A stretch of 63,903 nt of DNA, counting the filler, from Nemertoderma westbladi (taxonomy: Eukaryota > Animalia > Xenacoelomorpha), in NCBI GenBank assembly GCA_032718475.1. It is 3 parts of 3 records of this genome, joined end to end, with 100 filler letters (N's around TTAATTAATTAA, not from the genome) between each part and the next. Parts side by side here need not be neighbours in the genome. Positions count along the whole stretch, not along the records: positions 1 to 24,793 come from JAUCBJ010006057.1; 2 more parts are not named here. One strand, given 5' to 3'. How positions within the stretch are numbered: position 1 is the first letter of the stretch; each line of letters begins with the position of its first letter. A model generated the notes under the pieces. That model did not search any database and was not told the DNA's origin. It saw nothing but the letters and a program-made list of their open reading frames with translations. The translations under genes were made by a program, and so were the position numbers. Below are positions 1,621 through 61,115 of this stretch, one piece after another.

Positions 1621-2902
1621 GATTTTGATCTATTTTCATTTGGACACACTGACAGACTGAAGGCCTAGGCCTACAGTACTATAAGCATAGGTGTATTCAA
1701 TCATTCAGAGTACCAGGTTAATACACCATGAACTGGAATATAGTGTCGTTATTCAGGTACCTGGCTGGACCCCCCCAAATTTTTCTGCAAATCTTTAATG
1801 AGATTGCATGAAATTTGAAACAGATTTAGTTTTATTTTTGGTTTCAATCTTTAGCTACAAGCGTTTGAAAAAGGTGTCTCCGGTGATATTTCACCAGTTA
1901 CACTGCAGTTATCATTGAAACTTATCCTGATTTATTGGTAACAAAAAACATTTCAATTTGGTTGGGAAATAAATAGGCGAGATATGGGCATTCTAATGTT
2001 GCATGCATTTGTTTCATATATGCAGGCCATTTATTCCATTTAATAAATAATACACCATATTCTAGAACATTTCGTTTATCCCATACATAGCTGGGCAACA
2101 TAGTAGAGCAGATTCATGTGTTTTTTTAGGCAGAATCATTCAGGTTGTGATACATGCATGAAATTTGGTACGAACGTTCCTTTTGGGGCAAAACAAGTGC
2201 TAGCCACTTGGAAATCAGACATGGCGGCCTCAAGAACACGTTTCCATGGTAACCAGTACTTAATATGACATTTAAAACCCTTCAACTTTGGTAGAGGATT
2301 CCAAAAAATTATTTACATACATTATGTGCAGTATATGGAAAAATATATGTTGAATATATAATTTTCATATAATTTGTATGTTTCCATGGCAAGTTCAAAT
2401 GTTTTTACATTTCTGGAATCCTTGCATGGTCAGCTTTCTATTGGTACCAACAAACCACGATAGGGTTCAAGAATAACTGCAGTGTAACTGGTGAAACAAT
2501 AAACGGAGACACCTTTTTTAAACGCTTGTAGCTAAAGATTGAAAGCAAAAATAAAAATTCTGGCTCACCCACGGAGGAGGAGGGTGGTTAAACTAAGAAA
2601 CTAACTCTGTTTTAAATTTCATGCTATCTCATTAAGATATGTAGAAAAATTGGGGGAGGGGGGGGGGGGGGGGGGTGGTCCAGGTTCCTGAACGACACTA
2701 TATTCCAGGACATGGTGGTTTTTTATTATTGATAGTAACAATGTGTTGGCAAGCTGTATTTTTCGAGGTGTTTGTTATTATACAATTATTATAGGAAGGG
2801 ATCTAGGGGTCTTAACCTCGAATGATAAGTATATTTTACCGAAAATAACTTATCTTTTATTGGCGCAATCTTTCACCTCGAGGTCCCAGGTTCGAATCCG
2901 AC

Positions 2903-2945
2903 ACCACGCTGATGAGACCCAGTAAGGTCGAAACGCGTACGTGGT
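2903..2945 (+). ncRNA. Type I hammerhead ribozyme, copy 1 of 7
   Basis: accacg-CTGATGA-gacc(cagtaa)ggtc-GAAA-cgcg-TA-cgtggt. Stem I accacg/cgtggt, stem II gacc/ggtc, minimal stem III, GUA cleavage triplet (predicted cut after 2939). Confidence 0.93.
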
Positions 2946-3250
2946 TTGGAGAGATATGAGATATTAATTTCAAGAAAAAATACGCGATTCCTAAATTTGT
3001 ACACTACCCGGTTAAAAAGTACGCATGTGATGGGATTAGTCCTACAATTGCGCCAATAAAAGATAAGTTATTTTCGGTAAAATATACTTATCATTCGAGG
3101 TTAAGACCCCTAGATCCCTTCCTATAATAATTGTATAATAACAAACACCTCGAAAAATACAGCTTGCCAACACATTGTTACTATCAATAATAAAAAATCA
3201 GGGGCTAATAAAATGGCAGCTGGCTTTGAAATTAATACTCCATATCTCAA

Positions 3251-3316
3251 GAACCTGTGGCCTAGTGGTTGTAGTCTCGGCTTTCACCTCGAGGTCCCAG
3301 GTTCGAATCCGACACC
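3251..3316 (+). promoter_or_regulatory. tRNA-Glu(TTC)-like Pol III internal promoter of the monomer (repeats every 411 bp, 6 full copies)
   Basis: A-box TGGCCTAGTGG 3258-3268, anticodon-arm-like ctcggCTTTCACctcgag, B-box GGTTCGAATCC 3300-3310. There is no intact acceptor stem, so this is not a tRNA gene. Confidence 0.85.
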
Positions 3317-3356
3317 ACGCTGATGAGACCCAGTAAGGTCGAAACGCGTACGTGGT
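3314..3356 (+). ncRNA. Type I hammerhead ribozyme, copy 2
   Basis: Same sequence as copy 1; CTGATGA at 3320; predicted cut after 3350. Confidence 0.93.
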
Positions 3357-3724
3357 TTGGAGAGATATGAGATATTAATTTCAAGAAAAAATACGCGATT
3401 CCTAAATTTGTACACTACCCGGTTAAAAAGTACGCATGTGATGGGATTAGTCCTACAATTGCGCCAATAAAAGATAAGTTATTTTCGGTAAAATATACTT
3501 ATCATTCGAGGTTAAGACCCCTAGATCCCTTCCTATAATAATTGTATAATAACAAACACCTCGAAAAATACAGCTTGCCAACACATTGTTACTATCAATA
3601 ATAAAAAATCAGGGGCTAATAAAATGGCAGCTGGCTTTGAAATTAATACTCCATATCTCAAGAACCTGTGGCCTAGTGGTTGTAGTCTCGGCTTTCACCT
3701 CGAGGTCCCAGGTTCGAATCCGAC

Positions 3725-3767
3725 ACCACGCTGATGAGACCCAGTAAGGTCGAAACGCGTACGTGGT
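3725..3767 (+). ncRNA. Type I hammerhead ribozyme, copy 3
   Basis: Same sequence; CTGATGA at 3731. Confidence 0.93.
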
Positions 3768-4135
3768 TTGGAGAGATATGAGATATTAATTTCAAGAAAA
3801 AATACGTGATTCCTAAATTTGTACACTACCCGGTTAAAAAGTACGCATGTGATGGGATTAGTCCTACAATTGCGCCAATAAAAGATAAGTTATTTTCGGT
3901 AAAATATACTTATCATTCGAGGTTAAGACCCCTAGATCCCTTCCTATAATAATTGTATAATAACAAACACCTCGAAAAATACAGCTTGCCAACACATTGT
4001 TACTATCAATAATAAAAAATCAGGGGCTAATAAAATGGCAGCTGGCTTTGAAATTAATACTCCATATCTCAAGAACCTGTGGCCTAGTGGTTGTAGTCTC
4101 GGCTTTCACCTCGAGGTCCCAGGTTCGAATCCGAC

Positions 4136-4178
4136 ACCACGCTGATGAGACCCAGTAAGGTCGAAACGCGTACGTGGT
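4136..4178 (+). ncRNA. Type I hammerhead ribozyme, copy 4
   Basis: Same sequence; CTGATGA at 4142. Confidence 0.93.
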
Positions 4179-4546
4179 TTGGAGAGATATGAGATATTAA
4201 TTTCAAGAAAAAATACGCGATTCCTAAATTTGTACACTACCCGGTTAAAAAGTACGCATGTGATGGGATTAGTCCTACAATTGCGCCAATAAAAGATAAG
4301 TTATTTTCGGTAAAATATACTTATCATTCGAGGTTAAGACCCCTAGATCCCTTCCTATAATAATTGTATAATAACAAACACCTCGAAAAATACAGCTTGC
4401 CAACACATTGTTACTATCAATAATAAAAAATCAGGGGCTAATAAAATGGCAGCTGGCTTTGAAATTAATACTCCATATCTCAAGAACCTGTGGCCTAGTG
4501 GTTGTAGTCTCGGCTTTCACCTCGAGGTCCCAGGTTCGAATCCGAC

Positions 4547-4589
4547 ACCACGCTGATGAGACCCAGTAAGGTCGAAACGCGTACGTGGT
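4547..4589 (+). ncRNA. Type I hammerhead ribozyme, copy 5
   Basis: Same sequence; CTGATGA at 4553. Confidence 0.93.
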
Positions 4590-4957
4590 TTGGAGAGATA
4601 TGAGATATTAATTTCAAGAAAAAATACGCGATTCCTAAATTTGTACACTACCCGGTTAAAAAGTACGCATGTGATGGGATTAGTCCTACAATTGCGCCAA
4701 TAAAAGATAAGTTATTTTCGGTAAAATATACTTATCATTCGAGGTTAAGACCCCTAGATCTCTTCCTATAATAATTGTATAATAACAAACACCTCGAAAA
4801 ATACAGCTTGCCAACACATTGTTACTATCAATAATAAAAAATCAGGGGCTAATAAAATGGCAGCTGGCTTTGAAATTAATACTCCATATCTCAAGAACCT
4901 GTGGCCTAGTGGTTGTAGTCTCGGCTTTCACCTCGAGGTCCCAGGTTCGAATCCGAC

Positions 4958-5000
4958 ACCACGCTGATGAGACCCAGTAAGGTCGAAACGCGTACGTGGT
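4958..5000 (+). ncRNA. Type I hammerhead ribozyme, copy 6
   Basis: Same sequence; CTGATGA at 4964. Confidence 0.93.
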
Positions 5001-5368
5001 TTGGAGAGATATGAGATATTAATTTCAAGAAAAAATACGCGATTCCTAAATTTGTACACTACCCGGTTAAAAAGTACGCATGTGATGGGATTAGTCCTAC
5101 AATTGCGCCAATAAAAGATAAGTTATTTTCGGTAAAATATACTTATCATTCGAGGTTAAGACCCCTAGATCCCTTCCTATAATAATTGTATAATAACAAA
5201 CACCTCGAAAAATACAGCTTGCCAACACATTGTTACTATCAATAATAAAAAATCAGGGGCTAATAAAATGGCAGCTGGCTTTGAAATTAATACTCCATAT
5301 CTCAAGAACCTGTGGCCTAGTGGTTGTAGTCTCGGCTTTCACCTCGAGGTCCCAGGTTCGAATCCGAC

Positions 5369-5411
5369 ACCACGCTGATGAGACCCAGTAAGGTCGAAAC
5401 GCGTACGTGGT
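5369..5411 (+). ncRNA. Type I hammerhead ribozyme, copy 7
   Basis: Same sequence; CTGATGA at 5375. Confidence 0.93.
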
Positions 5412-6199
5412 TTGGAGAGATATGAGATATTAATTTCAAGAAAAAATACGCGATTCCTAAATTTGTACACTACCCGGTTAAAAAGTACGCATGTGATGGG
5501 ATTAGTCCTACAATTGCGCCAATAAAAGATAAGTTATTTTCGGTAAAATATACTTATCATTCGAGGTTAAGACCCCTAGATCCCTTCCTATAATAATTGT
5601 ATAAGGACATGGTGGTGGTACTCTGAATGATTGAATAGGTATTTTACAATAGGAATTAGATTTTACAATAGGAATAGGAATTTTACAGTAGGCCTAGGCC
5701 TTCAGTGTTCATTTTTTAATCTACAGTAGGCCTACTTTATACATATTGTATAAACACCCCACAGCACTGTATTGTTCAAAGAACACATAACGTCTTAATA
5801 TCCTGTTACTGTATTTGTAGTGATTATTAGCAACTCCGTACCGGTATAATTAAGGGTTGTTATTGTAAAATAATAATCTACAGTGTGAGCAAATCACACA
5901 GGAAACATTGTTAATTAGACGCCTCTTCAGCGTGTGTAGAGGTCTGATTAATTTATTATCTTTACAAGAAAGCAAAAGATGGTATCACAACAGGCTTACA
6001 TTTAATTTTAATGCATGTATGAAAAATTCTGATTAGATTCTTTGTTTGTATAATATTATACTGTACCTCCTACTCGGCTGAGTTACGTTATTTGATCCTA
6101 GCTTCTTTCTCTTCTTCTTTTGGCATGTGGATATATTATATATATTAAAAATGAAATGCCGGCTTGTCAATAAAATTGCTCCGCCATAACACCTATGGC

Positions 6200-6425
6200 T
6201 TTCTCGATATTTTTCAACACTCGATATTTTTACTCTCGATATTTTTATTCTCGATATTATTTTTCAACTCTCGATATATTTACTCTCAATATTTTTCAAC
6301 ACTCGACATTTTTACTCTCGATATTTATCAACACTCGATCTTTTTACTCTCGATATTTTTACACTCGATATTTTTTAACACTCGATCTTTTTACTCTCGA
6401 TATTTTTACTCTCGATATTCGATAT
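6200..6425. repeat. 15-16 bp tandem repeat (actctcgatattttt)
   Basis: About 14 imperfect copies are directly visible. Confidence 0.9.
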
Positions 6426-6426
6426 T

Positions 6427-7170
6427 CCTACCTTCGGGTAGCAGATAGGAGTAGCGCCCACCCCTACCCTCAGGTAGCAGATAGGAGTAGCGCCCACCCC
6501 TACCCTCGGGTAGCAGATAGGAGTAGCGCCCACCCCTACCCTCGGGTAGCAGATAGGAGTAGCGCCCACCCCTACCCTCAGTAGCAGATGGGAGTAATGC
6601 GCACTCCTACCCTCGGGTAGCAGATAGGATTAGCGCGCACTCCTACCCTCGGGTAGCAGATAGGAGTAGCGCCCATCCCTTCCCTCAGTAGCAGATGGGA
6701 GTAGCGCGCACTCCTACCCTCGGGTAGCAGATAGGAGTAGCGCGCACTCCTACCCTCGGGTAGCAGATAGGAGTAGCGCCTACCCCTACCCTCGGGTAGC
6801 AGATAGGAGTAGCGCCTACCCCTACCCTCAGTAGCAGATAGGAGTATCGCCCACCCTTACCCTCGGGTAGCAGATAGGAGTAGCGCCCACCCCTACCCTC
6901 GGGTAGCAGATAGGAGTAGCGCCCACCCCTACCCTCAGTAGCAGATGGGAGTAATGCGCACTCCTACCCTCGGGTAGCAGATAGGATTAGCGCGCACTCC
7001 TACCCTCGGGTAGCAGATAGGAGTATCGCCCACCCCTACCCTCGGGTAGCAGATAGGAGTAGCGCCCACGCCTACCCTCGGGTAGCAGATAGGAGTATCG
7101 CCCACCCCTACCTCGGTTAGCAGATATCGAAAGAGGAGCCTTCGGGTCGCCTCCGGCTTCGACCAACTGC
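6427..7170 (+). repeat. 36-bp minisatellite derived from a SINE 3' region, ending in the SINE tail
   Basis: About 19 copies of taccctcgggtagcagataggagtagcgcccacccc, then tatcgaaagaggagccttcgggtcgcctccggcttcg. Both match 55209-55291. Confidence 0.9.
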
Positions 7171-9521: not shown

Positions 9522-10089
9522 ATGACATGGTTATATATTTTATTCACAGGGTTTATTTAACCTGGGCCCCTCCCAATGATGAATACATTTAGAATACGAC
9601 CATTGTAATATATTAATAATTTATATGGAAGTTTATTATATTCATCATTATCCATTAAAATTTATGGTAATATTCTCCGACCAGTCTTAATATACATTAT
9701 AAATACAATATTACTTAGTTAATGTAATATAATAATCATTGATATACAAAGAATGCCATAACACAATTGAGCGCAAACAACAACAATTGGTTGCAACTAG
9801 TATATAGGCTACAGTAGAAGTTGTGATGAATAACAGGACCATTTAAATTAACTATGATAATCACCTGACGACGGTGTGTGTAACATCGAAACACCCCCAC
9901 ACACACTCACAGCAAGCCTACTCATTCGCTAGTGGATATTACACAAAAATGGGTCATATAAAAAAATGCAGTAGAGTTGCGTAGCTGGTCGCTAATAACA
10001 TTTAACTTCAGCATTAATAAACAAAAAAAACTACATAGAGCTTATTATAATAAAACATAAATCCTTGTGATTGCGCGCTAATTGCACGT

Positions 10090-11797
10090 AAGGATCACTT
10101 CGAGGAAATATCAACTGATGATGTTGCCAAGCTTATCAAAGATTCAAAACCTAGTCCAGTCCCCGTGATCCACTCCCTACACATATTGTGAAGCAATACC
10201 TTACAACTCTCTTAAGTGTCATTACAATGATAATTAATTTATCACTCACAACTGCTACATTTCCATCATTATTTAAAGAAGCTGTGCTCAATCCCATTAT
10301 CAAGAAGCTACGCCTTGACCCCGAGATACTGAAAAACTTTAGACCTGTTTCAAACCTCTTGTTCATTTCAAAGTTAGTTGAAAAAGCTGTTGCAAACCAA
10401 CTGATGCTCCATCTGAACTTACATAATCTACACGAGCCTATGCAAAGTGCCTATAGACCATTCCACGGAACCGAAACTGCATTCCTTAGGGTCAGCGATG
10501 AGATTCTGAGGGGAATTGATGATGGTTGTGCAGTACTGTTAGTAATGCTCGATCTCAGTGCTGCATTGGATACTGTCGAACACAGTATCTTATTAAATAC
10601 TCTGGAACATGAGATCGGCATTGCAGGGACAGCACTAGATTGGTTTCGATCCTACTTGTCGGGCCGCTCACAACAAGTACGCATTAACAACTCATATTCT
10701 CAACCTCAGCAATTAAGATACGGCCTCCCACAAGGATCAGTACTTGGCCTAATACTATTTACTATTTATACACGTTCACTCGCAAATGTGATAAGGAAAT
10801 ACGGACTGTCCCTACATCTCTACGCAGATGATACTCAAATATACATAACATTTAAGAAATCTAACCTGAATGATGCAGTGGATATCACTGAAAAGTGCCT
10901 TTCCGAAGATAAAAGATGAACTCAGATAAGACTAAAGTGGTCACGCTGCAGTCGCAATTCGGTAAACAAGTTGAATCCCCGCACGTGATAATCGGTTCCG
11001 AGACTATTGGTTGTAGCGCAACTGCGCGTAATATCGGTGTTGAAATCGATTCTCATCTGACACTCCGCAAGCACATTGGAATTACTGTCAGAGAAGCATT
11101 CTATCACCCCAGGAATCTTGGAAAAATTAAGCGCTATTTATCCAAAGATAATCTTGAGATTTTGATTCATGCGCTTGTCACTAGTAAATTGGAAAACTGC
11201 ACCTCCCTTTATTACGGTCTTCCGACTGTTTCCATTAAAAAGCTACAATATGTGCAGAACTGTGCGGCGCGTCTTTTAGTTGGTCTCAAGAAAAGTGACA
11301 GGCAACGAATGACCCCTGTACTAATGCGACTACACTACGTCGGATAGACTATAAAATTGCGCTATGATTACCTACTGTACAAGTGTCTAAATGGAACAGC
11401 ACCAGTATATCTGCGAGATCTACTGTCACCCTACACGCCCTCCCGGTCACTGAGGTCATCTCACTACGAACTGCTGGTGATCCCTAGATTCAACATGGTG
11501 CACTACGGCAAGCGCGCTTTCTCAGTTGTTGCCCCGACTATTTGGAACAAACTGCCAATCAACGTTCGACAATCACCAACCATCGCGGTTGTTAAGTCGA
11601 GGCTAAAAACACACTACTTCCACCTGGAGTACGAGTAAATCTGCATAATCATATTCACACGATGTTATCAATGTCCGTTTTTAATTAAACTGTTTTTATC
11701 TAATTTTTTAGCAATCCTACATTTTAACAGTGCCATGCGCCTTGCTCTTAATTTAGGAAAGGCGCTATATAAATATTTTAATTATTATTATTATTAA
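10090..11797 (+). mobile_element. 5'-truncated L2-clade LINE, RT pseudogene with frameshifts
   Basis: NFRPVSNL, QSAYR..H.TETA, LDLSAA(L)DTV, GLPQGSVLG, YADD, KRAFSVVAPTIWN. Frame breaks near 10916 and 11347. L2-type 3' end gcgcc...ggcgctatataaat followed by (att)n. Confidence 0.92.
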
Positions 11798-12417
11798 TTA
11801 TATTAAGTGATAAGTGGGGGCATCGCCCATAAGTCAAGTAATTAGGCCTACAGAGATGAGCCTTGAGTGGAGGTACAATTAGGGGACCTACAGTAGTAAT
11901 TCGCACCCTAGAGGCCGACAGAGTAAATATATAAGTCTGCATGTGTGTAGAACTTGATTAACTACATGTATAATAGGCCTACCAAGTTTGGTATGCCTTG
12001 CATTTCATTAAAGAATGATCGACTTTTAGTGTTCGAACATTTCCAACGACAAAAACGACGAAAGACGGGTCCACTAAAAGCTCACCTGATTTACGTGGCT
12101 CGCCCCACAGAACAACACATTTTATATGACATCCGGAAACATGCCAGTTTCTAATTAATTACAGGTAAACAGACCTACTGTATTACTAACATTATCATAC
12201 ATGTATTTCTTTGAGTTAATTAACATTATTAATTTAATAATAATATATTAAACAAAAATGATATTCAGTAAATGTCGCGCATGTAGCGTTTTGTGGTTTC
12301 ATTGTTGGTCCTTTTCAGTTTCCAACATTTTAAACTGAATTTTATTGAGCCACCAAGATGTTTAATCCATTTAATGTGAACCGGGAGGCTGAATAAACAA
12401 TACGTAACTTTGGTGGG

Positions 12418-22898: not shown

Positions 22899-23312
22899 CT
22901 ATTTTCTCTTCATTTTCTTTAACTCATTGCACTTTTCTTCATACTCGATTGCCAGTACCTGATTAACTATTTTATTCAGGATCCTATACATCTCATTGAC
23001 AGTTAATTCACTAACGGGTCTTCCGTACTTCGCGAACAAACAGTTGGGTTGGTTGTTCCGATGTTCCTCCCACGGGTCATCATTCCGCTCCCAACCCTCC
23101 AATATGGCGTAGCAAACGAAACATTTAACTTCGCCGGGGAAATCAGCGCTCTCTGGTGCTTGATAGAAACCCGCTTTCGCCATGTTACTCGCGTTGCATT
23201 TGTTGCGGTTACCGTACTTCCAGTTCGACAAGGTTTGTAGTTTGTCCTCCAGTGATAAGTGGAGGCTCGAGAGGAATTCACGAATAGATGTTTCGATAGG
23301 ATCCGCCATCAT
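22899..23312 (-). CDS. BIRC5: Survivin-like single-BIR protein (intronless)
   Basis: MAKAGFY, VKCFVC, LEGWERNDDPWEEH, PNCLF with CCHC zinc ligands, then a C-terminal helix; 137 aa, typical survivin size. Confidence 0.88.
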   Translation of the reverse strand: MMADPIETSIREFLSSLHLSLEDKLQTLSNWKYGNRNKCNASNMAKAGFYQAPESADFPGEVKCFVCYAILEGWERNDDPWEEHRNNQPNCLFAKYGRPVSELTVNEMYRILNKIVNQVLAIEYEEKCNELKKMKRK

Positions 23313-26242: not shown

Positions 26243-26998
26243 ATGAATTTTAATAAACATTTTGACATTCAAAAGAAGCAATCTTTATCAAAGACTGATT
26301 TATCTCGTAAAGAGGCTGTTGATTTTCGGATTGTAGATTTGGTTTCTAGTATCAACTCGAGTGTGGACTACTACACGACTAGTTCTTGTTCCGGTCGAGT
26401 TTACCTATTTAATCGCAACCCTTCCGGGAAGAAAGGGACTGTCTGGGTCTACGTCACCCACGATGTAGCTGATGCTGACCATATCGTGTCTGTATGTAAT
26501 AGCGCACTCGATCAAAAGGCTACCGGGTGTAATACTACCGAAAATTCAAACGATAATAAAATCGGAACTATCGCTGAACATGATTCCAGTGGCGTTGAAG
26601 ATTGTAGTAACGGATTATGTGCGTTGTCCTCCGATACTGCCGGGGAATTAACTGACAACTTCCCGTTGACTTTTAAGTTCGAAGCGTTCGTTATCCACGT
26701 GCAGTGTCGGAACGAGCGGGCGGCGTCGCGATTACTCGCCGCCGCGAACGGGGCCGGATTCCGTAACTCGGGGATCACTATCGGACGCGGCCCCAAATAC
26801 GGCGTCGCAATACGTAGCACAGCAGTCATGGAGACGCCACTGTCAGACAGCCTGGGCAATCGATTGGTTGGCAACGAATACGTTCGATATCTCGTCGCGA
26901 TCGCCAACTCTAAAATGGAAAGCAACTGGGAATCTACGGATCGTTTTATTAAAGGAGTTCTTCCTATTTTACATTCTACTTGCGAGACCGACACATAA
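26243..26998 (+). CDS. TYW3: tRNA wybutosine-synthesizing methyltransferase TYW3 (intronless)
   Basis: DLSRKxxVD, YYTTSSCSGR, WVYVTH, FKFEAFVIHVQCR, AGFRNSGI, VAIRST, LVGNEY, ANSKMESN motifs in the expected order. Confidence 0.93.
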   Translation: MNFNKHFDIQKKQSLSKTDLSRKEAVDFRIVDLVSSINSSVDYYTTSSCSGRVYLFNRNPSGKKGTVWVYVTHDVADADHIVSVCNSALDQKATGCNTTENSNDNKIGTIAEHDSSGVEDCSNGLCALSSDTAGELTDNFPLTFKFEAFVIHVQCRNERAASRLLAAANGAGFRNSGITIGRGPKYGVAIRSTAVMETPLSDSLGNRLVGNEYVRYLVAIANSKMESNWESTDRFIKGVLPILHSTCETDT

Positions 26999-27772
26999 AT
27001 ACAGTACCGAAAGGAACATAATGTGAATTTATCTGTGAATAAATATTAAACTTAGTATTTTAGTGTTAATTTTAAGAGACAGGGGACAGGGAGGGGGTGG
27101 GGACTGCAACCTAGATATTCTATCTAATTAATATTTATTTTCAATGTTAAATATCAATTTAGGGAATGAAGGATGGGGAATGGGAATGGTTCCATGAATG
27201 GAATGGCACGTTATTCAAACCAAAACAATAAACGAAACTCAATGGTACAGGTTACAGATTCAAACTCAATTTACAACTCAATAACACTAAAACAACTAGC
27301 TACTGTAGGTATGCGACGTTCTGGTACATTTCATACATGAGCTGCTACAATAGAATCACTTTTATTTGTTATATTTTTTCATAAGAAGAAAAATGCGCGG
27401 CGCGTTAAACATTAGTTTTTTTTAAATAAACTTAGAAAATATGTCAATAAATTAAATGAGAGAGCAAATTTTCCTTTGACAATAAATCTATTAATTCAGT
27501 AGAACAATTTGGAAAATAATCACAATTACACAGTGTTATTTATGTGATTGGGAGACAGGCGTTATCGTCGGAAGATAAATTCTGCCCGTTTGTGCATAAC
27601 TCGTACCAACCTAAATCTGTCTTGGTTGTCAGTTGGGGTTGGGGGAAGGGCAGAGGGGAATTAGTCATTGGTAGATCATCCGGTAGTTACAGTTTATAGG
27701 TCCAGGGTAGAGAACAAGATAATCGGTCCAGGACGCAGGAGGGTAGATAACGGGGTAGTTTTATTGTAAGGC

Positions 27773-30715
27773 AGTCGGTTCGGGAACAAAACTGGTAGTC
27801 AGTCGGTTCGGAATTAAAACTGGTAGTCAGTCGGTTCGGGATAAAAACTGGTAGTCAGTCGGTTTGGGATAAAACTGGTAGTCAGTCGGTTCGGGAACAA
27901 AACTGGTAGTCAGTCGGTTCGGGATAAAACTGGTAGTCAGTCGGTTCGGGATAAAACTGGTAGTCAGTCGGTTCGGGATAAAACTGGTAGTCAGTCGGTT
28001 CGGGATAAAAACTGGTGTCAGTCGGTTCGGGAACAAAACTGGTAGTCAGTCGGTTCGGGATAAAACTGGTAGTCAGTCGGTTCGGGATAAAAACTGGTGT
28101 CGGTCGGTTCGGGGTAAAAACTGGTAGTCAGTCGGTTCGGGGTAAAAACTGGTAGTCAGTCGGTTCGGGATAAAACTGGTAGTCAGTCGGTTCGGGATAA
28201 AACTGGTAGTCAGTCGGTTCGGGATAAAAACTGGTGTCAGTCGGTTCGGGATAAAAACTGGTAGTCAGTCGGTTTGGGATAAAACTGGTAGTCAGTCGGT
28301 TCGGGAACAAAACTGGTAGTCAGTCGGTTTGGGACAAAAACTGGTAGTCAGTCGGTTCGCGGTAAAAACTGGTAGTCAGTCGGTTCGGGATAAAACTGGT
28401 AGTCAGTCGGTTCGGGATAAAAACTGGTGTCGGTCGGTTCGGGATAAAAACTGTTAGTCAGTCGGTTCGGGATAAAAACTGGTAGTCAGTCGGTTTGGGA
28501 CAAAAACTGGTAGTCAGTCGGTTCGCGGTAAAAACTGGTAGTCAGTCGGTTCGGGATAAAACTGGTAGTCAGTCGGTTCGGGATAAAAACTGGTGTCGGT
28601 CGGTTCGGGGTAAAAACTGGTAGTCAGTCGGTTCGGGGTAAAAACTGGTAGTCAGTCGGTTCGGGAACAAAACTGGTAGTCAGTCAGTCGGTTCGGGATA
28701 AAACTGGTAGTCAGTCGGTTCGGGATAAAACTGGTAGTCAGTCGGTTCGGGATAAAAACTGGTGTCAGTCGGTTCGGGATAAAAACTGGTAGTCAGTCGG
28801 TTTGGGATAAAACTGGTAGTCAGTCGGTTCGGGGTAAAAACTGGTGTCAGTCGGTTCGGGATAAAAACTGGTAGTCAGTCGGTTTGGGATAAAACTGGTA
28901 GTCAGTCGGTTCGGGATAAAACTGGTAGTCAGTCGGTTCGGGATAAAAACTGGTGTCAGTCGGTTCGGGATAAAAACTGGTAGTCAGTCGGTTTGGGATA
29001 AAACTGGTAGTCAGTCGGTTCGGGAACAAAACTGGTAGTCAGTCGGTTTGGGACAAAAACTGGTAGTCAGTCGGTTCGCGGTAAAAACTGGTAGTCAGTC
29101 GGTTCGGGATAAAACTGGTAGTCAGTCGGTTCGGGATAAAACTGGTAGTCAGTCGGTTCGGGATAAAACTGGTAGTCAGTCGGTTCGGGATAAAAACTGG
29201 TGTCAGTCGGTTCGGGATAAAAACTGGTAGTCAGTCGGTTCGGGAACAAAACTGGTAGTCAGTCGGTTCGGGATAAAACTGGTAGTCAGTCGGTTCGGGA
29301 TAAAACTGGTAGTCAGTCGGTTCGGGATAAAAACTGGTGTCAGTCGGTTCGGGATAAAAACTGGTAGTCAGTCGGTTTGGGATAAAACTGGTAGTCAGTC
29401 GGTTCGGGAACAAAACTGGTAGTCAGTCGGTTTGGGACAAAAACTGGTAGTCAGTCGGTTCGCGGTAAAAACTGGTAGTCAGTCGGTTCGGGATAAAACT
29501 GGTAGTCAGTCGGTTCGGGATAAAAACTGGTGTCGGTCGGTTCGGGATAAAAACTGTTAGTCAGTCGGTTCGGGATAAAAACTGGTAGTCAGTCGGTTTG
29601 GGACAAAAACTGGTAGTCAGTCGGTTCGCGGTAAAAACTGGTAGTCAGTCGGTTCGGGATAAAACTGGTAGTCAGTCGGTTCGGGATAAAAACTGGTGTC
29701 GGTCGGTTCGGGGTAAAAACTGGTAGTCAGTCGGTTCGGGGTAAAAACTGGTAGTCAGTCGGTTCGGGAACAAAACTGGTAGTCAGTCGGTTCGGGATAA
29801 AACTGGTAGTCAGTCGGTTCGGGATAAAACTGGTAGTCAGTCGGTTCGGGATAAAAACTGGTGTCAGTCGGTTCGGGATAAAAACTGGTAGTCAGTCGGT
29901 TTGGGATAAAACTGGTAGTCAGTCGGTTCGGGGTAAAAACTGGTGTCAGTCGGTTCGGGATAAAAACTGGTAGTCAGTCGGTTTGGGATAAAACTGGTAG
30001 TCAGTCGGTTCGGGGTAAAAACTGGTGTCGGTCGGTTCGGGATAAAAACTGTTAGTCAGTCGGTTCGGGACAAAAACTGGTAGTCAGTCGGTTCGGGATA
30101 AAAACTGGTGTCGGTCGGTTCGGGGTAAAAACTGGTAGTCAGTCGGTTCGGGGTAAAAACTGGTAGTCAGTCGGTTCGGGAACAAAACTGGTAGTCAGTC
30201 GGTTCGGGATAAAACTGGTAGTCAGTCGGTTCGGGAACAAAACTGGTAGTCAGTCGGTTCGGGATAAAACTGGTAGTCAGTTGGTTCGGGATAAAACCGG
30301 TAGTCAGTCGGTTCGGGATAAAAACTGGTGTCAGTCGGTTCGGGATAAAAACTGGTAGTCAGTCGGTTTGGGATAAAACTGGTAGTCAGTCGGTTCGGGG
30401 TAAAAACTGGTGTCGGTCGGTTCGGGATAAAAACTGTTAGTCAGTCGGTTCGGGATAAAAACTGGTAGTCAGTCGGTTTGGGACAAAAACTGGTAGTCAG
30501 TCGGTTCGCGGTAAAAACTGGTGGTCAGTCGGTTTGGGATAAAAACTGGTAGTCAGTCGGTTCGGGATAAAAACTGGTGTCGGTCGGTTCGGGATAAAAA
30601 CTGTTAGTCAGTCGGTTCGGGATAAAAACTGGTAGTCAGTCGGTTTGGGATAAAATTGGTAGTCAGTCGGTTCGGGGTAAAAACTAGTACCGGTCTGCCG
30701 GTAGTCTGTCGGTTC
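27773..30715. repeat. 27-28 bp minisatellite (ggtagtcagtcggttcgggataaaact), about 105 copies
   Basis: Directly visible; variant blocks recur. Confidence 0.97.
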
Positions 30716-37611: not shown

Positions 37612-38178
37612 ACTACTAGTACTACTACGATCAGCATGAGGTATTGCAGCTGCATTATATATATATATATATATATATTACATATATATTAAGAATGCTG
37701 TGCCGACAAAATTGTGCCTCCACAACTCCCTAGTACCCATTACATTTGCTAGATCATCCGCATCTTCAAGGCCAGTGTCCTTTAAGATACGTCTAAAGAA
37801 TGTCATGGGTTGTCCACCATTCTTATTCACTCCATGAGGCCGCCAACGCACAAGATTATGCAACGGCTGGTCCTCACGGCGAAAGCAATATCCTGCAAAG
37901 CGGAGGCGGTTCCGTTCAATTGTCAAGCTAGGGGAGACTAATGGAACACCTCCAATGTTGTATAAAGTCTGATTGGAGATGTATTCATTGTACTTGACAC
38001 AATAAACCCGGCGCAACATTCTTGTGAATGTGCCATCCAGAGATTTGGTATCCTCTGCAGTTAGAGCCCAGCATGGACTCCCATATAAGAGTACTGTTAC
38101 TACTACTGCCATAAATAATCGAACCTTAAGGTTCTGTTTTATTCTATGGGACTTCCAAATCCTGGACAGACTATTTAA
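37612..38178 (-). mobile_element. RTE-clade LINE 3' fragment
   Basis: VLLYGSPCWALT, LDGTFTRMLRR, RLRFAGYCFR; family 3' end atgcagctgcaat...tagtag. Confidence 0.9.
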
Positions 38179-39135
38179 CTCCTACAACTAAACTTATTAA
38201 CTTGTTATGTAGATTAGTTCTCATAAACTAGGGGTTGTGTGGGATCTCTATGAACCGTAGGTGTTTGTAGAGGATCAGACATGAAGTAATTCCGGGTTTT
38301 AGATAATTCTTATATCGTTTAGTAAGTTTTGAGTTTAACATGAGGAGTTTATAAGTAGTAAATATTACGAAATATTAAACATCTAAACACCCATACAATT
38401 TGATAGATTATTTAATAATATTTGTAAATTCTCTTAAGTATAGATTGTGTACACGTACCAATAATGTTGTTTTAACAGGCTCACCTTCCGGGTTTTAATC
38501 CAACTCAAACTCCCTTATACTACATATTGCATATAGGCTATATATGGTATTATTTACTATATTTTCCTACTTATTTGTGTCGACAAATAGGTAAATATGG
38601 ACGGATAAACACAACGTTATATTTATGACGAGACGGTTTATGGCGGCTTCATACCAGTTTTAAAAACTTATATACAGTAGTTCATATAACAAAACTTTCG
38701 GATTAGCACACTCACTAAAAGAGCTACATGACACACGAATTTGCCAATTGGGTTGGTGCGCGAAATTTTTTGAGCTAGAAACAATCGAATAAGGGGTAAT
38801 AAGTTGCCCTGAAGTGACGGGGTTTGTTATTTGTAAAAACACCTGGAAACGGTCGCAAGGGCGGGTTTAAGTGAGCGCGGGGAGTCAATTTTTAAAATCG
38901 GCTGTGATTGGCTGCTACATATTTGACGTCATTACGCAGTGCTCTGATAATTTTTTATCTTGGTTTCTATGGAGAGAGATTTTCGATCAAATTCAAATAC
39001 ACATTAAATCACAATTATTTCACACGTGGCTTATATCAATTGAAGCAGAGAGTCTTGTGCGTCTTTTGATACTAAAATTAATTAAATTCATGATGGGGAA
39101 GATTTAATGGGTGGTCAAAATTTATGTGAGTACCT

Positions 39136-39530
39136 TTCCTGATGACCTTTCTGGGTCACAAAGGGAGACCAGATTGTGAGGGGGAGAGGGATTCTGGAGT
39201 TGGAGACTACTCTCATGTTCCACCCCGACCCAGCAAGACATTGGTTAACCAGAGGCAAATCACTGAGTTGCATTGGTCTATTGATGAATCAAACTGCACA
39301 TGCGCAGCATTGGAGAAAATAGACCAAATCTCAAACCGCATCATTCATTACCACTTCCTGCACTGGAAGTCTGGCTAAGAAATTTCCTAAAGTGGTTCTG
39401 ATTGTGTGATGATTCAACCAATAGTGTTGCTCCATTAGCGGAAGAGGTGGAAAATCTCTACAACAATACAAGTAGATACTGATCAGTCATTCTTAATATT
39501 CCTGGGAGACCTTTATTCAAGTCTAAATCA
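39136..39530 (+). mobile_element. RTE 5'/endonuclease fragment with internal deletions
   Basis: Matches 43837-43975 and 44220-44465 (GRPDCEGERDSGVG). Confidence 0.8.
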
Positions 39531-40092
39531 GTCATTTCTATAGCGTTAGTGTTAAGGGGACCATTACCCCCAAAGGAAGTCAATTTTTTATCTGTTTTAG
39601 TAGTTTGATAGAAGGTATTTCATGTGGTGACACTGGTTTTCACCATAGAGTTATTTTATCACCACAAAACAGCACTTTTCAAAATTTAAAATTTATTAAA
39701 TTTTGTATTTTCTTTTTTATATACAAAAATTTTGAAATTTTTTGGAAAATTTTAGCAAATTTCAATATATTTCATAGTTAAAATATGAAAAATTAAAATT
39801 ACCTCATGGAACGGCAGAGTCAGAAAAGGCTCATACTATTTGCGATTTTATGTTATATTAAAGAAGATTATCCAGTTCAAAGAATTGAACTGGAAAGATA
39901 GACTCATATATTGGGGACCAAGTGGTCACAAGTTCCAGATACTACTGTACTACTGTAATCGGCCTTCCACATTGAAACTGCACATTTACATAGATGCTAT
40001 GCCAGCTTAACTAAAACATTTTGTCACCATCATGCAATCCACAATTGGCAAGCCCAATGCAACGAGCATAAATAATGCTATATCAACACAAC

Positions 40093-40210
40093 TCCCTATC
40101 CCCCATGACTGTCGCGAGATTATCCGCATCTTCAAGGCCAGTGTCCTTTGGGAGGCGTCTTACGAAAAGCGAAAAAAAGGGTTCTTGTGTCAAGCTTGGG
40201 GGAACCTACG
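40093..40210 (-). mobile_element. Short RTE 3' fragment
   Basis: ctccctatcccccatgac...atccgcatcttcaaggccagtgtcctt matches the other copies. Confidence 0.7.
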
Positions 40211-40323
40211 GATCCCGGGAAGGGACATGAAAAAAAAATTTTTCTAACACGAGGCCTAGTGTTAGCTAACACGAGCCTTCGTGGTAGCTAAAACCGTTCG
40301 GTCTATGTAGGCCTACTGTATAA

Positions 40324-41073
40324 GCGGTTGCATAGATGGGTTTTCATGGAAGATTTTGTTCTTAGAAGTTTATAAAACCAATAACAACCCAAAAATTATT
40401 GGTGGCTATTTAGTATCTCGCCTTGGTGGATGCCCTTTAATGGTCAGGGCAAACTACGGAACTGAAAATACCTACATGAGAAGCTTTCAGATGTTTTTCC
40501 GCCGCAATTAATTGCACTGATGGCTTGGTAATCCGGGCGTATACAGACGGGCGCAGTACGGCAAATCAAAGAATCGAGAGTTGGTGGGGGGTTCTTCGGA
40601 AGGAGAACGCGCAGTTGTGGATAGAATTATTTAAAGAATTGCAGGCAGAAGGTATCCTCCCCGGAGACTTTGTTTCAAAGGCTGCTGTTCAGTTATGTTT
40701 TACTTCACTAATTCAAAACGAACTAGACACATTAGCATCAGTTTGGAACCACCATCTTATTCGTCCTTCTGGAAATCCCAACGTTCCAAGCGGCCGATCT
40801 AATATTATGTATAGTTCGCCTAGCCTCTACCGTTGTGCTACCAAACAGCTCTTAACCGTAGCGCCTTCTGAAATTAATACCTGCTGCTCCAACGACTTAT
40901 TCCGCTTATCTATACCTTGTGATGCCGATCTGTGCATTCAGTTAATGCGTGAGAAGAACCTCCGACGTCCTCTATCCGTAGACGACGCCGTGGAACTTTA
41001 TCTCATCCTTCATAATGCAATTCGCGAACTTCTTGGAAACAACGTAGACGATAGGTATACTAAGTCAGATTAA
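40324..41073 (+). pseudogene. DDE integrase-core transposase remnant (IS3EU-like eukaryotic DNA transposon)
   Basis: GCIDGFSWKILFLEVYKTNNNPKII (~40325-40400), VRANYGTEN, GRSTANQRIESWW, WNHHLIRPS...PSGR; frameshifted and 5'-truncated. Confidence 0.8.
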
Positions 41074-41094
41074 CTAATTATTATAGTTGAGTAT

Positions 41095-41255
41095 GATGTA
41101 GGTGTTGAACTGCGATGTTGATCCGTATGTCAAAGCCACCTTAGCAAAGAGTCAGCGCTCTATTATGGCGCAATTCCGTTGTGGAGTACTCCCGCTTGCT
41201 GTTGAATCTGGGCGATTTAAATGTAAGCCGCTAGAGGAATGAGTATGTGAAGTGT
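41095..41255 (+). mobile_element. LINE ORF2 C-terminal fragment (pre-zinc-knuckle region)
   Basis: QRSIMAQFRCGVLPLAVESGRFKCKPLEE*VCEV resembles the R.G..PL.IE.GR...EER.C motif. Confidence 0.6.
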
Positions 41256-41409
41256 TAATTAATAATTTACATACCAACAAAGTCCTGGAGATAATCCCTC
41301 CAATAGGTTAGCATTGCGTTGCCACCGAATCGAACCTTGCTCTGACCACTGCACTTCAAATAGCTGTTCAACAATAGTGGCGTCAAGTTCACACTTTGAG
41401 TAAACGAGT

Positions 41410-43220
41410 CCCCATCCCCCATGATTTTCGCGGGATTATACGCATCTTCAAGGCCAGTGTCCTTTAGGAGGCGTCTCACAAAAGTCAACTACTAGGATCG
41501 GCATGCTGCATTGCAGCTGCATTTTTAAGAATGCTGTGCCGGCTTGTCAACAAAATTGCACCGCCACAACTCCCTATCACCCATGACATTTGCTAGATCA
41601 TCCGCATCTTTAAGGCCAGTGTCCTTTAAGATGCGTCTCAAGAAAGTCATGGGCTGTCCACCATGCTTATTCACTCCATGAGGCTGCCAAAGTACAAGAT
41701 TATGCACTGGCTGGTCCTCACGGCGAAAGCAATGTCCTGCAAAGCGGAGGCGATTTTGTTCTAGTGTCAAGCTTGGGGGAACCAATGAGACACCTCCAAT
41801 GTTATATAGTGCCTGGTTGGAGATGTGTGCATTGTACTTGACACAATGAACCCGGCGTAGCATTCTTGTGAATGTGCCATCCAGAGATTTGGTGTCCTCA
41901 GCAGTTAGAGCCCAGCATGGACTCCCGTAGAGGAGTACTGGAACTACTGCTGCTCTAAATAATCGGACCTTAAGTTTCCGATTAATTCTCGGTGACTTCC
42001 AAATCCTGGAAAGCCTATTCAAGGCTGCCCATGCCTTTCCCTTACGTATTCGAAGGTCCTCACCTGACTTCCGGATCCATGATCCCAGGTAACAGAAGTC
42101 ACGAAAGTCAAGGCTATCCACCATGCTTATTTTCTCCTTGAAGCCGTCAAAGCACAATATTGTGAACAGGCTGGTCCTCACGGAGAAAACAATGTCTTCC
42201 AAAGCGGAGGCGGCTTTGTTCTAGTTTCAAGCTTGGGGGAACCAATGAGACACCTCCAATGTTATATAGTGTCTGGTTGGAGATGTATGCATTGTACTTG
42301 ATACAGTGAACCCGGCGTAGCATTGTTGTGAATCTGCCATCCAGAGATTTGGTGTCCTCAGCAGTTAGAGCCCAACATGGATTCCCATACTAGGATCGGC
42401 ATGCTGCATTGCAGCTGCAATTTTAAGAATGCTGTGCTGGATTCCCATAGAGGAGTACTGGAACTACTGCTGTTCTAAATAATCGGACCTTAAGTTTCAG
42501 ATTAATTCTATGTGATTTCCAAGTCCTGGAAAACCCATTCAAGGCTGCCTATGCCTTTCCCTTACGTATTCGAAGGTCCTCACCAGACTTCCGGATCCAT
42601 GATCCCAGGTAACAGAAGTCGCCCACATGCTCAAGCATACCATCCTTTGAGCTTATGCTCATCCGGTCAGACACATGCTGATGACTATCAAAGTTAACTG
42701 TCGAAATTTCGTTTTTTTTTTGAGTTAACAAAAAGACCAACTCTAAAAGCAGCATGTTATATTGTGCTGTGGAGCCGTTGGACTCCCTCTAGTGATTATG
42801 AGCCTAGTGATTATTAAGTCATCAGCAAAGTCTTGATCAGTTTCTGGAGCCAGTCGTAGGTGGAGTTACCATCACCTCATCATTATTATGATCTAGATAG
42901 ACCATATGGACTATCTGTACTTGTTACCACTGGGTCCAGTATGAGTCCATAACTGACCAGTTCGCTTAAATAAAGAATATTATTATGTTTCGAAGAAAAT
43001 ACAGGAGCTCTGTTGAAGACTACTGCATTTACACATCGACCCTTCTCCATAGGGATCACCGCTCAGTGGAGTGCATTCAAATTGGAGATGTGGATTCCAC
43101 CCTAATCCTGACCAGCCATTACCACCGCCTGATCAGGCCATATACCCCTGCAGCTAAGTATATGGGTCCTTAACCCAGAACCATGAACGTCCTTATAATA
43201 GGTCAGGTAAGGTATTCTAA
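41410..43220 (-). mobile_element. Rearranged RTE LINE copies (repeated 3' ends plus a 5' UTR fragment)
   Basis: DFCYLGSWI, DLRIRKGKAWAALNRL; 3' terminus present at ~41490 and ~42390; 43104-43200 matches the 5' UTR at 43345-43441. Confidence 0.88.
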
Positions 43221-43339
43221 TTCATTGATCAAGAAAACTTGCCACCTCCATGCAGCATAAAGGTAGTGCCACCTGTATCTGCATAGACCCTCTTACTAGG
43301 GCAAATCTGGTCCTGTAACTAGGACCCCCTTCGTTCTGG

Positions 43340-60278: not shown

Positions 60279-61115
60279 ATTAAGGGGTAGCGCATTTTCT
60301 GACCAAAAATACGAATTTTTGAAACATATCCTATCTGATGCAGAATTTCATGGTAAATCCAAATATGGAAACCGTTTTCCCATATCTTGCTTAGTTTTCG
60401 AGATATCTGGGATAGAAGATACTGGCTCCGATATATTGCGATATCGGTAAAGGCGATGAGGTTTGGAGTTTGCATTCAATTTCTGCAAATTTCTGTGCCC
60501 AGTGGTGCCAATTGGATGTCTCCACGAGAAAGAGCACAAAATTTTATTTGAGAAGGTATTTTTTTATGATTATTGGACCTACTGATCAGTTTATAAGACA
60601 ACTTCAAGTCTCCGGAATGAAGACGGGACTTGAATAAGCGACTCTGCGGTCTTTGCGGGATTACATGGAATAGACTTATCGGTCATCGGAGATCTTTAAA
60701 ATGTATAATCTCCAGTTCTAGTGGTCGTACGAAGTTCGTTTTAGGCTCATTCGAAAGCTCTTTTCTTAGAGAACAAAGTTACCATTTGATTAAAGACAAA
60801 ATGGTTGTAAAGCAACATAACATGAATTTGGGTATAATATGCCTTGCAAATTTTGTTCAAGTTATGATTGCTCAGGCAGCTTTAAAGAGTTTGCCAAACC
60901 AAATGGTAACTTTGGTCTCTGAGAAAAGAGCTTTCGAATGAGCCCAAAACGAACTCCGTACGACCACTAGAACTGGAGATTATACATTTTGAAGATCTGC
61001 GATGACCGATAAGTCTATTCCGTGTAATCCAGCAAATACCGCAGAGTCGCTTATTCGAGTCCCGTCTTCATTCCGGAGACTTGAAGTTGTCTTATAAACT
61101 GATCAGTAGGTCCAA
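60279..61115. mobile_element. Palindromic non-autonomous DNA element with ~200-bp inverted arms; right side cut off by the LINE
   Basis: 60573-60772 is the reverse complement of 60916-61115 with few mismatches. A possible left end TTAA|GGGG lies near 60280. Confidence 0.8.

Follow-up and report, generated by a model that had tools for sequence, protein, structure and literature searches.

A tandem hammerhead insertion in Nemertoderma westbladi, probably a young retrozyme with a tRNA-like head

What kind of element is a tandem array of hammerhead ribozyme motifs in the genome of Nemertoderma westbladi (Xenacoelomorpha), and by which enzyme and template did it come to lie there? We address this in a window of 63,903 nucleotides (assembly GCA_032718475.1), by which we mean the whole stretch of DNA that was analysed. 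For animal retrozymes, the inserting enzyme and the role of RNA circles as templates have been proposed and are called unresolved in the available part of a recent study (10.64898/2026.07.22.740005). The best-supported reading here is a young non-LTR retrozyme family with a tRNA-like head, and we regard it as nearly certain that the element is a retrozyme. Coordinates are given in Table 1; papers available in part are cited for those parts.

Hammerhead units of the array

TRF reports a tandem array with a period of 411 bp, 6.7 copies, 99% matches and 0 indels, which direct comparison of the units resolves into six full 411-bp units plus 269 bp. Both agree with an earlier note on this DNA, which had described seven hammerheads at an exact 411-bp period. 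The two substitutions that it had reported among the monomers are indeed the only ones: a C>T at 3807 and a C>T at 4761, both outside the ribozyme and each found in a single unit. With a unit GC of 0.38-0.40, the array consists of tandem non-coding units within the range of retrozymes (about 150-450 bp, GC below 50%), and it holds no ORF of note, as had been claimed, since no stop-free stretch in any of the six frames exceeds 69 codons. An endless frame round a 411-nt circle, conceivable given that 411 is a multiple of 3, was ruled out by the 5-11 stops per unit in every frame. No ORF with a reverse transcriptase and a GIY-YIG endonuclease, as in an autonomous Penelope element, was found in the element. 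Elsewhere in the window, TRF finds several unrelated tandem arrays, and a TYW3-like ORF shows 35-37% identity, along most of its length, to proteins of molluscs, echinoderms and chordates equally.

Table 1. Features of the element and its flanks (positions count along the window)
Feature	Position	Strand	Remarks
Left arm of older inverted-repeat host element	1650..1944	.	partner arm 2441-2717 resuming 5608-5711, split by the insertion
Whole element	2707-5616		from TSD to TSD
Left TSD copy	2707..2719	.	13 bp (11-13: one base per junction also fits the element)
Inverted 5'-truncated partial unit	2720..2869	-	150 bp; reverse complement of unit positions 3047-3197
Tandem arm	2870..5604	+	6.65 units; start within tRNA-like head (3281 equivalent); end at site A (3138 equivalent)
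Type I hammerhead motif, copy 1	2903..2945	+	predicted cut after 2939
Type I hammerhead motif, copy 2	3314..3356	+	predicted cut after 3350; helix I 6 bp; helix II 4 bp with 6-nt loop; palindromic hexamer 3344-3349
Hammerhead motif, copy 3	3725..3767	+	predicted cut after 3761
Hammerhead motif, copy 4	4136..4178	+	
Hammerhead motif, copy 5	4547..4589	+	
Hammerhead motif, copy 6	4958..5000	+	
Hammerhead motif, copy 7	5369..5411	+	
Segment between end sites A and B	3139..3197	+	59 nt, A/C-rich: 29 A, 13 C, 13 T, 4 G
tRNA-like head	3251..3313	+	A box 3258-3268, B box 3301-3309
Predicted self-cleaved monomer	3351..3761	+	six such between seven cut sites
Only T4 run per unit	3482..3485	+	possible leaky Pol III stop
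Right TSD copy	5604..5616	.	same 13-mer

Seven identical type I cores (CTGATGA...GAAA), all on the plus strand, start at 2909, 3320, 3731, 4142, 4553, 4964 and 5375, so that, as in retrozymes, at least two consecutive units bear a complete hammerhead. The cut is predicted after GUA at 2939+411k, and the site expected at 3350 is borne out by the motif coordinates. The Rfam check that had been proposed gave a divided answer: the motif matches Hammerhead_HH9 at the level of E-value (26.6 bits, E 1.7e-4) and falls below its gathering score of 52, and the Rfam scan of the window reached no gathering score. At 9865, 42678 and 58226 the window contains further hammerhead-like strings, all three dropped for lack of a regular helix II by strict count.

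Helix III of the motif is one base pair with a palindromic loop, a type described for newt and axolotl (PMC7229834, in part; PMC4209133). The unconstrained minimum free energy (MFE) fold of a two-copy transcript (3305-3776) is a double hammerhead at -132.6 kcal/mol, the two single hammerhead folds lying at -126.0 and -115.6 kcal/mol, and the ribozyme is predicted to need the dimer fold, in the manner of the single-pair helix III of newt and axolotl. Of nine predicted dimers of Xenopus retrozymes, eight failed to cleave in vitro, according to the available part of 10.64898/2026.07.22.740005. The monomer is strongly self-paired (fold z -4.43, with 0 of 100 shuffles equally stable; circular fold z -5.0 on the plus and -3.7 on the minus strand) and would be closed by helix I together with a 23-bp long-range stem (3362-3384 with 3637-3659). 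In unrelated contigs with the hammerhead core, a helix II pair is retained while varying freely in 6 of 6 loci, and helix I is fully paired (6 of 6) with a different sequence in 5 of 6, the sixth being a type III motif; these figures come from an anchored count, as the MAFFT alignment misplaces helix I of loci L001 and L002.

Insertion and family

The array is one dispersed insertion, bounded by a target-site duplication (TSD) and carrying an inverted arm. The coordinates 2870..5604 given by the earlier note fit the array and are too narrow for the element, both ends of which bear an identical 13-mer. Among 198,732 random pairs of boundaries, 226 match at 12 or more bases, and the arrays present in the window inflate this figure. 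The TSD exceeds 4 bp, as in retrozymes, and no LTR organisation is seen, the direct terminal repeats being units only. Further, the other arm of the interrupted host repeat can be aligned with the two flanks, and in it the TSD core occurs once.

Within this single TSD the tandem units stand next to an inverted truncated copy, an arrangement known from Penelope elements. The inverted arm, an exact match over 151 nt if base 2719 is included, has its outer end at a second internal end site, B (3197 equivalent), which places the outer ends of the two arms 59 nt apart. At the element termini the intervening segment occurs on the inverted arm only and would be the counterpart of the Penelope 'tail'. 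The two arms are joined head to head without shared bases, the left junction has a microhomology of 3/4 bases, and no tail is added at the right end. The point at which the long arm stops lies 83 nt downstream of site B (3281 versus 3197 equivalents).

In public contigs of a single organism the family is plentiful, independent samples yielding thousands of family contigs. Family copies end near both internal points at which the arms of this insertion end, a pattern only partly reproduced across likeness levels. At 80% likeness, contigs exit the unit into unlike flanks at 3127-3130 (at least 25+11 in dataset X1 and at least 26+7 in X3; agreement 0.38-0.46) and at 3191 (at least 9 in X3), and at 90% likeness at least 6 in X3 exit at 2718 (the 3198 equivalent). 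Among the matches listed, the site A cluster at 90% likeness is absent from X1 and X3 and represented by 2 contigs in X5, and at 80% likeness no comparable cluster of 5'-side ends was found. Both end clusters, A and B, lie within TAA-rich tracts. X5 also contains long and deep contigs that match parts of the unit, one of 1831 nt at 3275-3383 and one of 600 nt at 3058-3182, which are candidates for a Penelope partner element. Three letters present in all array units (3085, 3131 and 3284) can be carried by less than 0.5% of family depth in X1 and X3, and the letter at 2980, likewise in all units, is a minority letter of the family; the inverted arm shares the rare letters at the 3085 and 3131 equivalents.

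None of the public datasets with the family is on record as RNA. A dataset that is RNA only by guess and bears another organism label, X4, includes a single contig of 441 nt that can be closed into a ring of 411 nt; it was not counted as an RNA circle, since a piece of the flanking host repeat is also present in X4 (depth about 3), so that a DNA source is possible. No contig bridging this insertion was found in X1, X3 or X5 among the matches listed, where 2300-2324 is without cover. Viral contigs gave 0 matches and metagenome contigs no family members, 6 metagenome loci sharing only the 29-31-nt core.

It would still be conceivable that the locus is an ordinary satellite, or a repeat inflated in assembly, with a chance or dead hammerhead-like motif, given the ribozyme's score under the Rfam threshold and the other tandem arrays of the window. 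However, this reading has against it the TSD, the inverted arm and the interrupted host repeat, the two unit-specific substitutions, the covarying helices of unrelated relatives, the double hammerhead as MFE fold and the thousands of contigs in independent samples. We find this explanation barely credible; the TSD-bounded insertion and the abundant family support the young retrozyme family that had been proposed, and it is very probable that a single retrotransposition event produced the locus.

tRNA-like head, enzyme and template

Directly 5' of the ribozyme, each full unit carries A and B boxes of tRNA type, and by its letters the unit has a tRNA-like Pol III promoter motif. The head recurs at +411 steps to 5306-5368, giving six full copies; of the two boxes, the first unit retains B alone (2889-2899). 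At 123 of 125 public loci this pair of boxes goes with a tRNA called by ARAGORN, the gap between the boxes being 31-33 nt there and 30 nt in the window element, and outside the array 1 of 1352 tiles contains an A+B pair. In its unselected middle part the head resembles real tRNAs only marginally, 26 of 500 shuffles doing as well, and neither ARAGORN at default settings nor Rfam calls a tRNA on the head; relaxed ARAGORN makes 254 calls across the window and is uninformative for it. Each unit has seven runs of four or more A, which are T-runs on the minus strand, versus one T-run on the plus strand, a bias compatible with Pol III transcription of the plus strand. For this family, the boxes would explain transcription at any site of insertion, in a kind of element supposed to lack a promoter.

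A single insertion with a TSD and an inverted arm points to the class of the mobilising enzyme. Penelope-like elements are described as forming tandem copies next to an inverted, 5'-truncated one, with the tail confined to one end (PMC8557442, in part), and as having an inverted terminal copy and a TSD of 8-10 bp (PMC3846280, in part). Their enzyme cuts and extends both strands, with two internal starts that bracket the tail in an AC-rich region, in the available part of PMC11167929. We found no literature report of Penelope-type junctions on a retrozyme, although the supplements of PMC7229834 and 10.64898/2026.07.22.740005, outside the search, may show TSDs or inverted ends; nor did the search find a paper combining 'retrozyme' and 'twin priming'. 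An endonuclease motif scan of the window and loci revealed no Penelope protein, and no Penelope terminal-repeat homology to the unit was found within the window. The window encodes two reverse transcriptases, both of which resemble LINE proteins, which we take to be of clade L2/CR1-type; that at 10155-11638, considered as a Penelope partner, looks like a LINE with an ATT-repeat tail.

Given a tRNA-like head in SINE fashion and LINE reverse transcriptases in the same window, the element might instead be a SINE-like passenger of a LINE enzyme (L2/CR1/RTE-type), with the TAA-rich tract as pseudo-tail and the inversion as ordinary twin priming. L1 twin priming yields a median 13-bp TSD, 5' inversion and breakpoint peaks (PMC12016303, in part), and the microhomology at the left junction would suit it. 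However, the head lies mid-unit, the right end lacks an added tail, blastn of the unit (word 7, E 0.01) finds nothing similar elsewhere in the window, not even at LINE 3' ends, other copies share the inverted arm's end point among the matches listed, and inversions of Alu SINEs are very rare at 0.02% (same source). A LINE enzyme is therefore improbable in our judgement, and integration by a Penelope-type enzyme likely.

For such an enzyme, the following course may be proposed. Pol III would start at the A/B boxes of one unit and read through its T4 run into the next units. Neighbouring hammerheads are predicted to pair their palindromic helices III, to fold as a double hammerhead and to cut after GUA, which would set free monomers of 411 nt. 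A single monomer, without a stable helix III, would persist, and a host ligase may close it into a circle, by analogy with other retrozymes. The junctions suggest that a Penelope-type enzyme then nicked both strands 11-13 bp apart and that reverse transcription was primed at two internal RNA sites. The cDNA from site A would have run for 6.65 rounds and that from site B for 150 nt before the two were joined.

The same element and enzyme could also do without a circle, either on a linear uncleaved multimer or through an insertion of about 1.65 units later expanded by unequal crossing-over. In vitro the anole Penelope enzyme works mainly on unprocessed RNA and does not need ribozyme cleavage (PMC11167929, in part), local tandem amplification is favoured in the available part of 10.64898/2026.07.22.740005, the stop of the long arm downstream of site B is as expected for two primers on one linear RNA, and a linear multimer or later local expansion would also give shared rare letters. 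However, the near absence of the three all-unit letters from the family makes a separate source array hard to accommodate, the unit-specific changes are unshared and so give no trace of stepwise duplication, and a seven-unit transcript must escape seven predicted cleavages. A route without a circle seems unlikely to us, and we favour circular RNA as the template with reasonable but not strong confidence. Taken as a whole, one recent TSD-bounded insertion by a Penelope-type reverse transcriptase/endonuclease, probably copying one circle from both nicked strands, has in our estimate a slightly better than even chance of being correct.

Tentatively, and with real doubt, the element may further be a self-promoting, SINE-like passenger of Penelope: Pol III would make its multimers, the hammerhead would be gated by dimer formation, the circle would be safe from its own ribozyme, a Penelope enzyme would copy one such circle at two fixed sites, using both strands of a DNA break, and RNA-level changes in that circle (the three near-private letters) would have been written into all units. 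The pairing of tRNA boxes with a hammerhead is also found in unrelated 1-kb units (L002 and L005); the class may thus be widespread, have evolved repeatedly and extend beyond schistosomes.

Comparison with known systems

The class of element is already known, and the gain is a clean test case for the proposed life cycle: a readable footprint made up of a TSD, letters common to both arms and a pair of predicted priming sites separated by 59 nt. Like the metazoan non-LTR retrozymes of coral, Mytilus, axolotl (HHR_Amex1) and newt (satellite 2), as described in the available parts of PMC7229834, 10.64898/2026.07.22.740005 and PMC7761336, it has a non-coding tandem unit of 150-450 bp with GC below 50%, one type I hammerhead per unit, a TSD longer than 4 bp, a strongly self-paired monomer and an Amex1-type helix III that needs the dimer; 75% of metazoan retrozyme families have at most 7 units. 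RNA forms have been shown for other metazoan retrozymes; the 411-nt linear and circular RNAs of this family are predicted ones. Their link to Penelope rests on co-occurrence and terminal-repeat similarity, that proposed here on junction anatomy.

With endonuclease-bearing Penelope elements it shares tandem copies, an inverted truncated copy, a one-end extension and a TSD, and perhaps also a pair of internal start sites, which would lie 3' of the hammerhead in A/C-rich sequence. Unlike them it has no ORF, a canonical rather than a minimal hammerhead and a tRNA-like head; its extension is 59 nt versus 30-40 nt, its TSD 11-13 bp versus the 8-10 bp cited, and its target, unlike the one in reports on the anole enzyme, is not AT-rich. 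A/B boxes, a TSD of about 13 bp and a 5' inversion are also features of LINE-mobilised tRNA SINEs and L1 twin priming (PMC12016303, in part); the element differs from such SINEs in its mid-unit promoter, its lack of a terminal tail, its concatemer copies and the ribozyme in the unit.

Of the retrozymes named for comparison in the earlier note, Sm-alpha comes closest, ahead of the coral and mussel elements: metazoan retrozymes, these included, are described as without promoters (PMC7761336, in part), whereas this unit carries a promoter motif. Schistosoma Sm-alpha and Sj-alpha are tandem units in which a tRNA-related Pol III promoter precedes a type I hammerhead (PMC6765202 and PMC2770079, in part), with the promoter, as would be the case here, at the 3' end of the cleaved monomer and tandem copies needed for propagation. 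For Sm-alpha, the available parts of these papers describe no TSD, no inverted arm and no pair of internal end sites such as this insertion shows. The 411-bp unit, the other animal lineage and the single-pair palindromic helix III set our element apart; the likeness is one of design, and the A/B boxes extend the Sm-alpha design to another animal lineage.

The retrozyme insertion

The array is genuine: a young insertion of a non-LTR retrozyme that follows the Sm-alpha design and bears a Penelope-like footprint. Self-cleavage, transcription, circular RNA and a partner enzyme are predicted for it. The earlier note had described seven identical hammerhead motifs at an exact 411-bp period, two substitutions near 3807 and 4761 and no notable ORF. 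All of this was borne out: tandem-repeat analysis gave zero indels, the only between-unit differences are C>T at 3807 and C>T at 4761, and no open frame in the array exceeds 69 codons. Its proposal of a young retrozyme family also stands, with many related contigs in public runs.

An older inverted-repeat element hosts the insertion in one of its two arms. Its second arm (1650-1944) matches the sequence left of the insertion as far as 2717, resumes on the right flank at 5608 and has the duplicated core once, and it is a stand-in for the empty site. Matches of at least 12 bases occurred in 226 of 198,732 random boundary pairs, many of them from the window's own arrays. The right end carries no added tail, the inner junction between inverted arm and array has zero shared bases, and three of four bases match at the left junction. 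Because the long (tandem) arm ends at the 3138 equivalent within the unit (site A) and the outer end of the inverted arm lies at the 3197 equivalent (site B), 59 A/C-rich bases are found at one terminus only. Parts of the older element are highly repeated in two public sequencing runs, X1 and X3.

Features of the window, with positions along the whole stretch
Feature	Position	Strand	Description
Target-site duplication (TSD)	2707-2719 and 5604-5616		13 bp, identical copies
Inverted copy	2720-2869		150 bp, of unit positions 3047-3197; between left TSD copy and array
Tandem array	2870-5604		period 411; six full units + 269 bp, as assembled
Hammerhead cores	starts 2909+411k	+	seven, identical
A box; B box	3258+411k; 3301+411k	+	in each of six full units
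Older element	1650-1944 and 2441-2717/5608-5711		non-coding, long imperfect inverted arms, MITE-like
Minisatellite, unrelated	6202-7126		periods 15 and 36 bp
Hammerhead-core-like string	9865-9893	+	upstream of truncated LINE; helix II irregular, so probably chance
LINE-type retrotransposon	10155-11800	+	truncated broken RT, ATT-repeat tail
BIR (inhibitor of apoptosis) domain	22899-23312	-	exon or ORF
TYW3 (wybutosine methyltransferase)	26243-26998	+	intronless ORF, 251 aa, 35-37% identity to animal homologues
Minisatellite, unrelated	27772-30689		period 27 bp
Repeat cluster	37689-45650		500-800-bp repeats, direct and inverted, with DUF6451 and integrase-like (rva_4) fragments
Minisatellite, unrelated	47140-49120		period 40 bp
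Minisatellite, unrelated	50414-52953		period 37 bp
LINE-type retrotransposon	61081-63762	+	893-aa endonuclease-RT ORF

Ribozyme and tRNA-like head

In the Rfam check proposed earlier, the window gave zero matches at gathering level, and a 501-base test gave one sub-threshold match to Hammerhead_HH9 (26.6 bits, E 1.7e-4). Six base pairs form helix I and four form helix II, which carries a 6-nt loop; helix III consists of one A-U pair that closes a palindromic tetraloop and is of the same type as in ribozymes described as weak singly and efficient as dimers (PMC7229834, PMC4209133). The unconstrained minimum-energy fold of the contiguous two-copy segment 3305-3776 is a double hammerhead whose helix III spans 6 bp (-132.6 kcal/mol); as two single folds the segment reaches -126.0 (helix III open) or -115.6 kcal/mol. 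The monomer between predicted cut sites has a fold z of -4.43 (0 of 100 shuffles as stable), and as a circle it reaches -5.0 on the + strand and -3.7 on the - strand (60 shuffles each). Ribozyme activity is predicted from these models; eight of nine predicted dimers failed to cut in a 2026 preprint (10.64898/2026.07.22.740005).

The end of the tRNA-like head directly abuts helix I. On the window's + strand the only A/B pairs are those of the array, two occur elsewhere on the - strand, and outside the array a pair was found in 1 of 1352 tiles. The exact box pair matched at least 125 loci in public data, 2 of them viral and 123 prokaryotic, with ARAGORN tRNA calls at 123 of the 125 listed; the A-B gap is 30 nt in the unit versus 31-33 nt in the tRNA loci listed. 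Neither ARAGORN nor Rfam called a tRNA in the head, and its middle, outside the search pattern, has marginal tRNA likeness (26 of 500 shuffles equally good). The head is a decayed tRNA copy. Each unit has one T4 run on the + strand and seven runs of four or more T on the - strand. A review describes metazoan retrozymes as seemingly promoterless (PMC7761336). The Sm-alpha design places a tRNA-related Pol III promoter before the hammerhead in tandem units (PMC6765202, PMC2770079). The unit matches Sm-alpha in this arrangement, and Pol III use here is predicted.

The hammerhead core pattern also recovered 6 distinct metagenome loci whose resemblance to the window is restricted to the core. At all six the free helix II pair remains complementary. 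Helix I forms all 6 of its pairs, in differing sequences, at five of the loci; L004, which has a type III motif, is the exception. Of the five unrelated type I loci, two have an A/B box pair (spacing 32-33) upstream of their ribozyme: L005 (890-1010, + strand; unit about 1012 nt) and L002 (- strand; hammerhead at 1012-1040, with the boxes about 130 and 87 nt before it; unit about 980 nt). The tRNA-box-plus-hammerhead design is recurrent. L003 (1406 nt), L006 (1539 nt) and L002 (1111 nt) have terminal repeats of 50, 123 and about 130 nt and one hammerhead per unit with no long ORF; they may be either circular RNAs or tandem units, 1.0-1.4 kb in size.

Related contigs and their ends

Part of the unit is present in 7 of the 12 public runs listed, and contigs from four were aligned to one unit, giving 3709 (X1), 1498 (X3), 84 (X5) and 1 (X4) matches. 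Contig depth does not give copy number, but the unlike flanks imply dozens, at least, of separate insertions. Exits into unlike sequence cluster at 3127-3130 (at least 36 contigs in X1 and 33 in X3) and at 3191 (at least 9 in X3), and 5'-side exits, among the rows listed, number at most 5 contigs each, at the edge of the reference. The window and the family have different bases at 3131, so the true ends probably lie a few bases right of 3127-3130; in X1 the loose letters open with the three bases that come next in the family. With 90% likeness required, at least 6 X3 contigs end at 2718 (3198 equivalent), and a site A cluster is absent among the X1 and X3 matches listed. These data moderately, not firmly, suggest fixed internal ends of family copies, as the counts cover the matches listed and both sites are TAA-rich.

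The letters of all units at 3085, 3131 and 3284 are possible in at most 0.03%, 0.44% and 0.17% of depth in X1 and 0.04%, 0.33% and 0.05% in X3; at 2980, too, all units have a letter that is in the minority, at 5-7% in X1 and X3. The inverted arm has both of the rare letters within its span. Both arms therefore derive from a single template molecule or a single source locus.

Two X5 contigs are possibly a longer relative or autonomous partner: one of 600 nt (depth 512) matches the end-site region 3058-3182 with 13 differences, mostly T>C, making the TAA tract richer in C, and one of 1831 nt (depth 401) matches the ribozyme region 3275-3383 with 10 differences.

Integration and known systems

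The retrozyme class, its circles and a proposed Penelope mobilisation are already published (PMC7229834, 10.64898/2026.07.22.740005, PMC11722881); in our literature search, mostly of listings and the openings of abstracts, none described a retrozyme with Penelope-type junctions. Penelope-like elements typically show tandem copies, an adjoining inverted 5'-truncated copy and a tail confined to one end (PMC8557442). In purified form, the anole enzyme cleaves both strands and extends each of them, with two internal starts bracketing the tail (PMC11167929). From this layout and these two starts we infer that both arms are likely first-strand cDNAs primed from two nicks, one of which would run 6.65 times round an RNA circle. 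No Penelope protein was found in the window.

L1 twin priming produces TSDs of comparable length, inversions and, in part, peaks in breakpoint position (PMC12016303), but the insertion has no added tail, the unit does not match the window's LINEs, and other copies also terminate at site B. Letters common to all units would also arise from a linear multimer template or later local expansion rather than a circle; against these, the unit differences are singletons and the shared letters are rare in the family, so one-step copying is favoured, though not proven, by the sequence comparison. The insertion resembles Penelope-like elements in its tandem copies, inverted 5'-truncated neighbour and one-sided tail. 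Rotifer examples have TSDs of 8-10 bp (PMC3846280), and the insertion departs from the published Penelope pattern in its 59-nt tail, its TSD of 11-13 bp and the lack of AT-richness at its target.
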